From: Octopus vulgaris
Lineage: Eukaryota
NCBI GenBank assembly: GCA_951406725.2
Contig: OX597835.1
Span: 36,580,001 to 36,644,000 of the forward strand
Direction: 5' to 3'
Length of the DNA stretch: 64,000 bases
The notes under the pieces were generated by a model. That model saw only the letters and a list, made by a program, of their open reading frames with translations. It ran no database searches and had not been told where the DNA came from. The position numbers were made by a program, and so were the translations under genes. Shown here in pieces: positions 7,042 through 54,091 of this stretch. Numbering within the stretch: the stretch's first letter is position 1; each line of letters starts with the position of its first letter.

Positions 7042-7594
7042 TAATATAAGGGATATTAGCCAACCGAATATGGCTAGGGACAGGGCAGGGTGGTGGGGGT
7101 GTCACTGTTGCATTTAGCCCCAGGCGAACATCAACGTCACCAGATAGGCCTGACGCCATCACGGCGTCCTCTATCCTGCAAAGGGAGATCATTCACCAAG
7201 AAGCCGATACCACACACGGACCTAGGTTTCAAGGTGTATTGCCTATTATCAACGTGTGGTAGGCATCGCTTCTCGATGAACGACCAACTGTGCAAGATAT
7301 ATATAAGGATTTGCCTACCACACGTTTGCCTACCACACGTTGATAATAGGCAATACACCTTGAAACCTAGGTCCGTGTGTGGTATCGGCTTCTTGGTGAG
7401 TGATCTCCCTTTGCAGGATAGAGGACGCCGTGATGGCGTCAGGCCTATCTGGTGACGTTGATGTTCGCCTGGGGCTAAATGCAACAGTGACACCCCCACC
7501 ACCCTGCCCTGTCCCTAGCCATATTCGGTTGGCTAATATCCCTTATATTACGGAGCAGTCACTGTCTATATCTCATTTAGAGAATTATTATTGC
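7042..7594 (+). mobile_element. Hairpin-plus-tail element (putative non-autonomous Penelope-like element)
   Basis: 224 bp inverted arms (7042-7265 and 7327-7550; one mismatch seen), unpaired tail 7551-7594, (TA)n on both sides. Confidence 0.75.
7331..7384 (+). ncRNA. Type I hammerhead ribozyme motif, U3-A8 core variant (mirror copy 7208-7261, - strand)
   Basis: taccacacg-TTGATAA-t-agg caataca cct-t-GAAAC-ctag-GTC-cgtgtgtggta: stem I 9 bp with a 2-nt bulge, short stem II, palindromic loop 3, GUC triplet. Confidence 0.7.
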
Positions 7595-8169
7595 TATATA
7601 TATATATATATATATATATATATACGACGGGCTTCTTTCAGTTTCCGTCTACCAAATCCACTCACAAGGCTTTGGTAGACCCGAGGCTATAGTAGAAGAC
7701 ACTTGCCCAAGGTGCCACGCAGTAGGACTGAACCCGGAACCATGTGGTTGGTAAACAAGCTACTTACCACACAGCCACTCCTGCACATATCATTTTTTAA
7801 AATTATTATTTAGGCCATATAGTTATTCTAACGGTTCCTTTGGGCGAATCGCTAAGTTACGGTTACGTAAACACACCAACAACGGTTGTCAAGCGGTGGG
7901 GCGGGGGAACAAACACAAAGGCACACACACACACACACCGTCTACCAAATCCACTCACATGTTTATGGTGAAAAAAAAATGCTGGCCCAAGGAACTTAAC
8001 CCGGTGTCATGTATTTGAAAAACAAACTAATTATTTCACGATGCTTTATCAACTAGGAAGTTCTAAGTTCAAATTCCACCGAAGTCGACTTTGCCTTTCG
8101 TCCTTCGGAATCGACGGAATAAGTACCAGTTGAGCACTGGAGTCAATCTAATCGACATGTATCCCCTTG

Positions 8170-8508
8170 GGATCTTTTCGGTTTGAACGGCAGTTTTTAA
8201 CATAATTTCTAGGTAACTAAAAAATATTAAACTTCGTATACTGGTAGAATGTGTTTATAAAACATCATTTTCTCTTGGCTTTCTTGAGAAAATTCTGTAG
8301 TTTGTAACGGCACATAATGCCAGTGATTGGTTAAAATTGCAGAAATGCAAGAAATTAAAGACGAAATATGTTACAAAGTACAGAATTTTCTCAATAAAGC
8401 CAAAAGAAAAAGATGTTTTATAAACACATTCTACCAGTGTACGAAGTTTAGAATTTTTTAGTTACCTAGAAATTATGTTAAGAACTGCTGTTCAAACCGA
8501 AAAGAACC
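8170..8508. mobile_element. Merlin-like MITE, symmetric variant with about 135 bp inverted arms
   Basis: Ends GGATCTTTTCGGTTTGAACGGCAG / CTGCTGTTCAAACCGAAAAGAACC; 8-bp TSD tccccttg. Confidence 0.75.
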
Positions 8509-8939
8509 TCCCCTTGTTTAGTTGTTTGTTCCCTCTCGAGCCATTTCTGGCTCATTAGGGCCAGTTACCCGATTTCCTTGGTATATAGGTTCCCCACCTG
8601 AACGGGACGCCGGTCCGTCGCAGATGAGCTGCAAGATGCAGGAGGAAAGAGTGAGAGAAAGTTGTGGCGAAAGAGTCAGCAGAAGTTCGCCATTACCTTC
8701 TGCCGGAGCCGTGTGGAGCTTAGGTGTTTTTGCTCATAAACACACACACATCGCCCGGTCTGAGGTTCGAACCCGCGATCCCTCGACCGCTGCTCTAACC
8801 ACTAGGCCATGAGCCTCCTCACCCTTATTTATTTAGAGCATACATATTACATGCTCAACATAAATATTGGTTTTAAAGTTTTGGTACAAGGACAGAAAAT
8901 TCATGGGTGAAAGGGTGAGGGCAAATCGATAACATCGTT

Positions 8940-9433
8940 CCCGAAAAGATGAAAGACAAAGTTGATCTCGGCAGATTTTGAACTCAGAACGTAGCGGCAG
9001 ACGAAATACCTATTTCTTTGCTACCCACAAGGGGCTAAACACAGAGAGGGGACAAACAAGGACGGACAAAGGGATTAAGTTGATTATATCGACCCCAGTG
9101 CGTAACTAACTGGTACTTATTTAATCGACCCTGAAAGGATGAATGGCAAAGTCGACCTCGGCGGAATTTGAACTCAGAACGTAACAGCAGACTAAATACC
9201 TATTTCTTTACTACTCACTAGGGGCTAAACACAGAGAGGACAAACAAGGACAGACAAACGGATTAAGTCGATTATATCGACTCCAGTGCTTAACTGGTAC
9301 CTAATTTATCGACCCCGAAAGGATCAAAGGCTAAGTCAACCTCGGCGGAATTTGAACTCAGAACGTAGAGGCAGACGAAATACCGCTAAGCATTTCGCCC
9401 GGCGTGCTGACGTTTTCTGCCAGCTCGCCGCCT
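8940..9433 (-). mobile_element. SINE family B (OR2-like, Nin/Deu-domain core), head plus three tandem bodies (last one partial)
   Basis: Core gtcgactttgcctttcatcctttcggggtcgataaa; tail-to-internal junctions at 9009/9010 and 9199/9200. Confidence 0.8.
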
Positions 9434-9908
9434 TTGACGAACGAAATGCCGCTAAACATTTTGCACGTGTTTACGTTCTTGATTCCAAATCCTGAAACTT
9501 TGAGAGAGGGATTTAGTCGATTAGATAGACCCCAATGCTCAACAGGTATTTTATCGGCCCCGGCCCCAAAAGGATGAAAGGCAAAGGGGACCTCGGCGGA
9601 ATTTGAACACAGAACATTAAGAGGGATGATACTGCTAAAAATTTGTCCGACCTATTAACAATTCTGCCAGTGAGCAGAAATTAAGTTAATGTTACAAGGG
9701 AGGTAACTGTTGCTTATATTCCAGTACTATCTCAGCAGGGCGACGACCTGTCAAATTCGTTAGGACGTCGGGCTAAATACTTAGCAGTATTTCGTTGGTT
9801 TTCATGTTCTGATGTCAAATTCCGCCGAGATCGAGACTTGGCTTTTCATCCTTTGAAGGCACATGGCTCAGTGGTTAGAGCGTCGGGTTCGATTCTCGGA
9901 CTGGGCTG

Positions 9909-52197: not shown

Positions 52198-52531
52198 CTG
52201 TATGGGTAGCAGGGCTTAAATACTCTGCTCTTATGTGTGAGACAGCTATACACTTTAAGATCATATATTTGAATTGCCAACTGCCAATGGCTTGAAGTTT
52301 ATCAACCCTTTAGCATTTAAACTGGTCACATGGGGCCAAAATATTTCGTTTTATATTGAAACTGTGTGTATGGGTAGCAGGGCTTAAATACTCTACCCTT
52401 ATGTGTGAGACAGCTATACACTTTAAGATCATATATTTGAATTGCCAACTGCCAATGGCTTGAAGTTTATCAACTCTTTAGCATTTAAACTGGTCACATG
52501 GGGCCAAAATATTTCGTTTTATATTGAAACT
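52198..52531. repeat. Tandem duplication of about 170 bp
   Basis: tgtatgggtagcagggcttaaatactct...ttttatattgaaact occurs twice. Confidence 0.85.
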
Positions 52532-52699
52532 TGCTAGATCTGACATTTTGCAACTATCTGACATCTATCCTACGATATTGTTTTACAAATAAACAATTAC
52601 ATAATCAAAATCTTGAAGTTATGAGATAAAGCATGATTAATTCAAAACAATGTGAATAAATAAGCATTACATTTGACATGGGAATCTGGATGCTAAAAG

Positions 52700-53640
52700 A
52701 TAGAAATTGTGTACCTCTGGTGACAGCAGTATGTAGTTCATTTTTCCTGTTAACAGACACTGCAGTTGGTATAGTATGTGTAGTCTCTTGCAGTGACAGG
52801 GTTAGCAATTGCGTGTTCCAGATAAGCAAGGAAGGGCCATATCAATGATACTCCATTTGATGTTGGATAAGTCATTCTGATGGTCATGGAGCCTCTAGAC
52901 GAAGTGAGATCAAGAGGTTGAGTTTTCCTTGTTCCTGTACTTGAAGGAGTGCATGTGCTGTTTATATCTTTCCTTAAAATCATTAGCTGTCATGCCTGTG
53001 TAATGTTTTGTGATGCTATCTTATGGTACAAGAGTGTATCTATAGACTACACCTTTTGAGAGGCAAGTTATTCCCTGTGGGCAGCTGGTAGAAATTCAAA
53101 AGTTACAGGTTGCGGTGTAGATTGGAAGCTGTGTAGGTGTTTGTGGCATGTGATGAGTAAAGTGATATTGTCTAAACAGGAATAACTGACTTTAACATTG
53201 TGGGGACTGAAGGATTTATAATACCTATGGGTTCTTGGTAAATGTTTTTTTAATTAGTGTTAAGAAGCTCCTGGTTATGTTAGTTTCTAGGTTGTATGGA
53301 GGATCGAACCAGTTTATTTTTGTTTCCAACTCTCTTCAGGTTCAGGGTTTGGGTGATGTACTTCATATATATATATATATATCAGCAAATCCACTCCTTG
53401 CTAATGTCTCATTATAGTAGGGTGCAGTCAAGTTGGAGATTTTTCTGTTTGCTGATAGATTAGAGATTCTCTTCTTATGCTTGTAAATAGGTTTCTAATT
53501 ACAGTTGTAGGGTGGTTGGAGTTTCCATGGATATAAACAATTTTCTCATTGAGTTTTATATAAGAGTAGTACTTGCATGTCCACAAGTTTAGACTGGTAA
53601 GAGTGATAAGGGAGTGTGTAAACTAAGAGAGACCATGATT
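52700..53640 (-). pseudogene. Decayed Penelope-like element ORF (RT thumb, linker and GIY-YIG endonuclease)
   Basis: YIHGNSNHP, RISNLS..PYYNETLARSGF, NVKVSYSCLDNI, CP.G.TCLSKGVVYR...HYTGMTANDFKERYKQH..SF, IKWSII, NRKNEL; many stops and frameshifts. Confidence 0.8.
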
Positions 53641-53715
53641 GCTACATGTTTGTTATTGACAGGGAGTTAAAGAGAAAACAACATGAACAGAATTATGGGA
53701 AAGCAGTAAAGATTT

Positions 53716-54091
53716 ATATTTCATTTTGGGATTTGGTTTGCAAGATCCATTACGTGAGTTCGTGTGTTGAAGCATATTCTGTTGTGTCTGGGGAGAGTCA
53801 TTTTCTTTCTGTGCCTTATAATTTAACACACACATCGGTAAAATTTCCACTTTTTTTTCTTATTTTTATTTTCCTAAAATTTTCATTGCGTCTTGCAACC
53901 TTTTCAATAGTTTTGACTCTGTCCTTTATTTACACTGCTGTTATTTACTTGCAAACTATTGAAAAGGTTGCAAGACGCAACGAAAATTTTTGGAAAATAA
54001 AAATAAGAAAAAAAAGTGGAAATTTTACCGGTGAGTGTGTTATATAGTATAAGGCACAAAAAGAAAATGACTCTCCCCAGACACAACACAA
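53716..54091 (-). mobile_element. Hairpin-plus-tail element with 9-bp TSD
   Basis: About 135 bp arms (53780-53913 and 53953-54088), tail 53716-53779, flanking direct repeat taaagattt. Confidence 0.72.
53956..53993 (+). ncRNA. Minimal hammerhead-like motif, U3-A8 variant (mirror copy 53874-53910, - strand)
   Basis: cta-TTGAAAA-g-gttgc aagac gcaac-GAAA-attt...; perfect 5-bp stem II; stem I is only 3 bp (cta/tag in the mirror arm). Confidence 0.45.

Follow-up and report, generated by a model that had tools for sequence, protein, structure and literature searches.

A 64,000-nucleotide window of Octopus vulgaris DNA (contig OX597835.1, positions 36,580,001 to 36,644,000) was analysed for five short insertions, E1 to E5, each made of two inverted arms and a tail that is present on one side only. 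Self-BLAST and a repeat finder run on the 64-kb window recovered the inverted arms at all five places where the original prediction, made from the letters alone, had put hairpin-plus-tail structures, and each of them lies in (TA)n or is flanked by a target-site duplication (TSD), the length of which varies as had been expected. The short spacer that was said to separate the arms proved to be mostly the longer of two unequal arms. The insertions very probably carry the footprint of Penelope-like elements (PLEs), E2, E3 and E5 being pieces of PLE pseudo-long terminal repeats (pLTRs) and E1 and E4 pieces of tandem monomers, and were likely written by a PLE reverse transcriptase (RT)-endonuclease. 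Their parts, in window positions, are as follows:

7042..7312, − strand: E1 tailless arm, 271 nt; positions 310–356 plus 1–224 of a 356-nt tandem monomer, inverted
7313–7326: E1 centre, a short templated filler between the arms
7327..7595, + strand: E1 tail-bearing arm, monomer positions 1–269; tail 7551–7595
7334..7379, + strand: E1 type I hammerhead motif, core 7340, U3-A8, palindromic stem III; predicted cut after 7373; mirror in the left arm
12917..13423, − strand: E2 tailless (left) arm, 508 nt of a coding-PLE pLTR; 98% to parent L327
13419..13680, + strand: E2 tail-bearing arm; tail about 13569–13680
13443..13533, + strand: E2 hammerhead motif, core 13449, canonical C3-G8, long stem II; predicted cut after 13527; mirror in the left arm
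42297–42308 and 42644–42655: E3 TSD, 12 bp
42309..42444, − strand: E3 tailless arm
42448..42644, + strand: E3 tail-bearing arm, the first ~208 nt of the predicted transcript of a coding PLE (parent L306/L307/L308)
42463..42513, + strand: E3 minimal hammerhead motif, G3-C8 core, U at position 17; stem II decayed in the window copy
42586–42644: E3 tail, encoding the N-terminus of an open reading frame (ORF)
48493..48776, − strand: E4 tail-bearing arm, 3' part of a 598-nt tandem monomer; tail 48493–48582
48777..48876, + strand: E4 tailless arm, 100 nt
53707–53715 and 54092–54100: E5 TSD, 9 bp
53716..53939, − strand: E5 tail-bearing arm, coding-PLE pLTR (L320, L329), relative of the parent of E3; tail 53716–53776
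53874..53910, − strand: E5 minimal hammerhead motif, U3-A8 core, U17, stem I of 3 bp only
53954..54091, + strand: E5 tailless arm

All five families carry a type I hammerhead motif, as recognised by descriptor. The strict descriptor gave six matches in the window, namely E1 and E2 in both arms and two more at 47459 (+) and 49008 (−), against 0.02 (palindromic stem III) to 0.13 (any) matches per window in 60 shuffles, and a relaxed descriptor, a check that had been proposed earlier and was run without the shuffle control, added E3 (42470) and E5 (53907, −). The motif of the E4 family is canonical and lies upstream of the end of the window copy, which stops just downstream of the hammerhead of its monomer. 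A tail-facing motif had been predicted in four of the five; it is present in every family, that of E4 lying outside the window copy, and in E1 and E2 both arms contain it and it points outward. It is intact in 26 of 30 E1 loci and 29 of 30 E2 loci, and the relaxed descriptor is passed by 22 of 30 loci in E3 and 10 of 23 in E5. The 3-8 core pair is C-G in E2 and E4, U-A in E1 and E5, and G-C in E3, and the hammerheads of E3 and E5 have a common layout with U at position 17. In the conventional hammerhead numbering U17 is a poor context for cleavage, and the G3-C8/U17 hammerhead of E3, to judge from its core, may no longer cut. No hammerhead was among the Rfam matches listed (150 of 335), and a term search of the literature returned no paper on a natural G3-C8 core with U17. 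The two additional strict matches, canonical motifs at window 47455–47535 (+) and 48933–49012 (−), have a long stem II and a palindromic stem III and lie beside (TA)n; they are probably single-arm ends of other PLE families.

Coding parents and tandem monomers

The tails of E3 and E5 encode homologous N-terminal peptides (36–45% identity), so the description of the families as sequence-unrelated fails for this pair, which also has the hammerhead layout in common. Parents were sought with a profile of these peptides, which led to the match P0003, continuing into a PLE-like N-terminus, and from it to read-through copies in the genome; P0002 and P0004 proved to be noise from repeat proteins. In L306 and L307 the E3 sequence continues into an ORF and is present at either side of it (repeat–ORF–repeat), and L308, a kilobase hairpin, has a frame of 1,025 aa that contains RT motifs and GIY-YIG (E 2e-5); the N-terminus of this parent is 83% identical to a database protein labelled Octopus. 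E5 reads through in L320 and flanks an RT-endonuclease (EN) ORF in L329. E2 ends the RT+EN element L327, which matches an intact PLE with 40% identity across 293 aa (E 3e-64). The short copies of the three families are colinear with their parent pLTRs at 87–98%. The comparison of arms with pLTRs beside PLE ORFs, which the original prediction had proposed, gave matches for E2, E3 and E5, and by sequence these are pLTR pieces of RT-endonuclease PLEs of this genome, the parent copies examined being broken or truncated. Pfam gave no match for the five remnant fragments or for the two intact ORFs of 732 and 1312 aa, and the identification as PLEs is therefore based on tblastn and motifs. The E2 pLTR also contains an internal tandem duplication (102 bp, 86%) at 13156–13361, which is common to all copies reaching that far.

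Several young PLE families were encountered in the same genome. L313 and L314 (G000:C15 and C1) belong to an intact 1,312-aa family with many full open frames and kilobase hairpins, which is related to the E3 and E5 parents (54% over 814 aa to that of E3). L236, L244 and L245 have an upstream ORF of up to 479 aa before a 781-aa RT-GIY-YIG ORF, and two relatives of this family, L237 and L238, contain a pLTR hammerhead with U3-A8 and U17. L211–L220 form a 732-aa family, of the same group as a decayed PLE remnant in the window, with hairpin arms of up to 4 kb that are 0.2% divergent within a locus. As parents of E1–E5, the intact 732-aa and two-ORF 781-aa families were excluded by BLASTN.

E1 is a head-to-tail monomer of 356 nt, and 10 of 25 loci contain more than one complete unit. 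Its insertions are incomplete tandem stretches, the inner ends of which are free and the outer ends of which fall at about monomer position 224 or 269. The monomer of E4 measures 598 nt and wraps around in 3 loci. Each has one type I hammerhead per unit and no coding capacity (longest ATG frames of 62 and 46 aa, respectively), and no coding parent of either was found among the coding families fetched. Tandem units of E1 differ at 48 of 4,676 sites within loci (1.0%) versus 2.3% between loci. In their unit structure E1 and E4 fit the non-LTR retrozyme, and the non-autonomous, retrozyme-like nature that had been predicted for all five stands for these two; E2, E3 and E5, of which no monomer array was seen in the samples, are ends of coding PLEs and have the attributes of an endonuclease-containing (EN+) PLE pLTR, that is, a flanked RT and GIY-YIG ORF, a one-sided tail with an inverted truncated copy, and a hammerhead motif by descriptor. 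A 260-nt E3 “monomer” was dropped as a local duplication that included flank. No RNA dataset was found among those listed as containing E1, and contigs of four runs guessed to be RNA, which cover parts of E1 and show no start, end or circle, were not used as evidence.

Insertion footprint and copy ends

First-look candidate lists held 1,342 to 3,156 entries per family, which are not copy numbers, and each sample analysed is the best-scoring part of a much larger candidate list. Structures were counted with tail-side queries, and the arm-sharing, TSD and motif-intact counts of E3 and E5 come from whole-hairpin sets. Duplicate or overlapping loci were removed before the five-family counts (5 in E1, 3 in E3, 3 in E4 and 1 in E5), and two near-identical neighbours and two already-sampled places were skipped in a further E3 sample.

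Among the 143 loci of the five families, one tail only was present in all 89 true hairpins, a single flagged exception being a spurious match. The further 80 E3 copies gave 59 hairpins, 57 of them one-tailed and 2 two-tailed, and in the combined set exactly one tail is found in 146 of 148 hairpins; by a simple calculation, about a third would be expected to have two tails if either site could be chosen freely. Single-arm copies account for 53 of the 143 loci and for 21 of the 80. The outer ends are fixed ~45–110 nt apart, which corresponds to the tail, and the inner ends are variable. Inversion points, the position of which relative to the tail was another check proposed with the original prediction, vary in all five families when the tail or the tail-bearing arm is used as the query; E2 copies that are 98–100% identical invert at points scattered across several hundred bases. 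The hairpins arose as separate inversion products and do not amplify as hairpin units, which settles a question that the prediction had left undecided. Coding PLEs have the same structure with kilobase arms, the outer-end excess being 70 nt in the 732-aa family and 40 nt in the 781-aa family. Copies outside (TA)n have TSDs of 6–14 bp where an exact match of at least 6 bp is present (10 of 16 non-TA copies in E3 and 8 of 16 in E5).

The tailless arm is often longer inside, and in many hairpins, the window copies of E1 and E2 among them, each arm has sequence absent from the other. Such private sequence, together with the E3 centre, which is found in both orientations, excludes simple fold-back copying. 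Non-consensus bases are shared by the two arms 2.5–9 times more within than between loci. The junctions often contain short templated fillers, which we read as end joining.

Processing by the ribozyme, the part of the original prediction that would have set the ends of the copies, is not borne out: the copy ends avoid the predicted cut site, and the ribozyme does not set them. Of 139 E3 arm ends, 87 fall at −5 to +20 of the predicted transcript, 6 lie close to the predicted cut (after +60) and another 6 are found upstream of −5, three of the latter truly entering the parent untranslated region (UTR); an earlier sample (n = 55) gave 34 at the start, 1 near the cut and 3 upstream, all these positions being BLAST starts and hence approximate. 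In E1, 1 of about 41 inner ends (hand count) is within 5 nt of the cut, as chance predicts. The E3 parent has a TATA-like run ~30 nt upstream of +1, and its base before +1 is C or T. A G precedes +1 in four of four single E3 copies that start there and in 19 of 22 non-parent E3 arms, G making up about 18% of the flanks. The pile-up of starts ~30 nt past a TATA-like box and the non-parental G fit reverse transcription of a capped, uncut RNA. In L1 elements the cap is copied by the RT, and by analogy the extra G of E3 would be a copied cap. The literature search, the coverage of which excluded most subscription papers and the repeat databases, returned nothing on a cap-derived G or on twin priming in PLEs. 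An extra G is also present in L302 and L304, derivatives of the E3 parent in which a short ORF stretch joins back to +1 in tandem; internal-deletion or circular templates are possible sources of these tandems.

Proposed mechanism and its rivals

In the mechanism that we propose, the PLE RT-endonuclease would nick both DNA strands at AT-rich sites and each nick would prime one cDNA, at two fixed internal start sites on the RNA; both cDNAs would run toward the RNA 5' end and would then be fused head to head, presumably by end joining. The E3 template would likely be a capped transcript that starts ~23 nt upstream of the hammerhead core and is uncut by the ribozyme. Priming near the ORF start would yield the ~208-nt E3 copies, far more numerous than the long ones, and priming in the 3' repeat would yield longer copies, whereas a tandem or circular RNA would serve as the template for E1 and E4. 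Both arms would likely derive from one RNA or one source locus, and the ribozyme would be carried along with no role in setting copy ends. A more specific version, in which a dimer of the PLE enzyme makes two copies of a single capped, uncut RNA, starting at the tail-end and the tail-start site, with priming by the two nicked strands, extension through to the cap and end joining of the cDNAs, is offered tentatively, at somewhat less than even confidence. If true, this dimer rule would account for the inverted repeats of PLEs, for tails on one side only, for the abundance of solo pLTRs and for the way in which retrozymes spread, and the E3 family would be a record of it in thousands of natural copies. 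The rules that can be counted in genomes, namely a single tail in each hairpin, a common source for both arms and copy ends that fall at the capped start instead of the ribozyme cut, are open to testing with an intact young element of the same genome.

The architecture, the hammerheads and the retrozyme–PLE link have already been published, and what the present data add are end rules that can be counted and a possible signature of the cap. EN+ PLE units consist of a pLTR, an inverted 5'-truncated copy and a one-sided tail, with a (TA)n bias (PMC8557442; PMC8969392), and the formation of the inverted repeats and tails is stated to be unexplained (PMC8557442). The insertions resemble these units in the inverted truncated copy, the tail at one end, the (TA)n bias, the C-terminal GIY-YIG of the parents and the pLTR hammerhead, and differ in the tails, ~45–110 nt here versus 30–40 bp there, and in the dominance of short pLTR-only insertions. 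Minimal hammerheads of metazoan PLEs have been described as opposite-strand pairs 100–700 bp apart and read as truncated PLEs (PMC4209133); the short palindromic stem III, the extra base between 9 and 10.1, the U3-A8 variant and the opposite-strand pairs recur here, whereas the natural G3-C8 core with U17 of E3 is absent from the available part of that description. For Poseidon PAc of Anolis, the tail arises from two RT start sites that lie within the beginning of the ORF, uncleaved RNA serves as the substrate in vitro, with cleavage unnecessary, targets are AT-rich, and C3G/G8C gives partial rescue (PMC11167929). The proposal for E1–E5 has the two internal start sites, the uncleaved template and the AT-rich targets in common with PAc, and E3 adds genomic evidence on inversion and on copy ends at a capped start that the available account of PAc lacks. 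Animal non-LTR retrozymes, non-coding tandem monomers with a type I hammerhead, have been proposed to be PLE derivatives (PMC7229834), and a preprint (10.64898/2026.07.22.740005) regards retrozymes as non-autonomous PLE derivatives on the strength of their co-occurrence and of pLTR homology, both in vertebrates. Such monomers, with one type I hammerhead per unit, are E1 and E4, in which, unlike in the argument of the preprint, the tail and inversion of the PLE footprint are directly visible; homology of their sequence to the pLTR of a parent was not found.

The parents, the tandem monomers, the end rules and the same footprint in coding PLEs are direct observations; several points nevertheless weigh against the account built on them. 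All structure samples required at least one tail, so tailless pairs could not be counted, and two E3 hairpins have two tails. The sharing of bases between arms could come from gene conversion instead of a single source. Mobilisation of E1 and E4 by PLEs is likely, the evidence for it being the insertion footprint. In hairpin centres the origin of the extra G is equivocal, since the base may come from the other arm, which leaves ~8 unambiguous cases, and an extra G was sought in E2 and E5 copies, in which none was seen. The 5' boundary is weaker in these two families, 4 of 30 E5 loci and 3 of 30 E2 loci extending further upstream. Finally, the parent sequence before E3 +1 also reads as a splice acceptor, with a branch-point-like motif, a pyrimidine tract and an AG exactly at the boundary, and three E3 arms retain 2–4 parent pyrimidines before +1.

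The last points raise the alternative that the E3 5' end is a splice acceptor and that the copies stem from a spliced RNA whose first exon would be about 3 nt long. PLE pLTRs contain introns, and in D. virilis an intron end meets hammerhead helix I (PMC4209133); however, independent copies have no common sequence upstream of the G, the copies with retained pyrimidines do not fit, and the TATA-like run is spaced as expected for a start at +1, which makes splicing quite improbable. Hammerhead cleavage as the source of the transposing RNA, a linear monomer or circle, in all five families is unlikely, although a little less so. The motifs are kept with compensatory changes between families, in the 3-8 pair (C-G, U-A, G-C) and in differing palindromic stems III, and the lower divergence of E1 units within loci fits a circle, but E3 and E5 copies contain the whole uncut motif and end upstream of it without a pile-up at the cut, and both have U17; a circle is possible for E1 and E4 only.

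Less doubtful, and compatible with writing by the PLE RT-endonuclease, is the view that short E2, E3 and E5 copies are SINE-like (short interspersed element) non-autonomous families with an internal promoter in short master copies, although we still consider it rather unlikely. Short copies far outnumber long ones, none of 150 scored E3 peptide matches has an open frame >180 aa, several sequence variants circulate among the short copies, and D. virilis Penelope has an internal promoter (PMC2377424). Against this, the copies are colinear with the parent pLTRs, the TATA-like run lies outside the short copies, and some copies extend into the parent 3' UTR or ORF. Amplification as miniature inverted-repeat transposable elements (MITEs) or other fold-back DNA elements is extremely improbable. 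When the whole E3 hairpin was used as the query, 40 of 40 matches were near-identical full hairpins, but this result was due to the query, the bias of which made E3 and E5 look fixed; tail-based samples contain variable arms and single-arm copies, and fixed-length symmetric terminal inverted repeats with a fixed TSD were not found. The parents and the variable inversion points refute the MITE reading, the tandem units, one-sided tails and variable TSDs also argue against it, and in this respect the original prediction, which linked the elements to PLEs and not to MITEs, was correct. Repeat libraries should file such hairpins as PLE products.

Other features of the window

Relatives of the five insertions and a PLE remnant were located elsewhere in the window:

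11946..12139, strand not given: short E5-family hairpin-plus-tail copy, 11-bp TSD
51285..51416, + strand: E2-related short hairpin with tail, 73% to the E2 3' end
52766..53592, − strand: decayed PLE RT-thumb/GIY-YIG remnant of an old family (tblastn of an intact PLE protein, E 5e-26)
55171..55257, − strand: E2-related fragment without a tail, 78%

The remnant confirms the decayed Penelope RT/GIY-YIG ORF of the original prediction. E5 adjoins it but has its own TSD, and the 14 best relatives of the remnant have no matching terminal repeat; the data give no support to it as the partner of any of E1–E5. A direct duplication of ~175 bp lies just downstream of the remnant, at about 52190–52530. An imperfect 340-bp hairpin (84%) at window 8170–8508, with no hammerhead match, may be a true MITE, and a short hairpin with ~40-bp arms around a TA-rich centre is found at window 32872–33007. 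Outside the window, many more hammerhead variants with different stems occur in the flanks of loci L049, L081, L082, L107, L195, L200 and L234, so that such elements are dense in the O. vulgaris genome.

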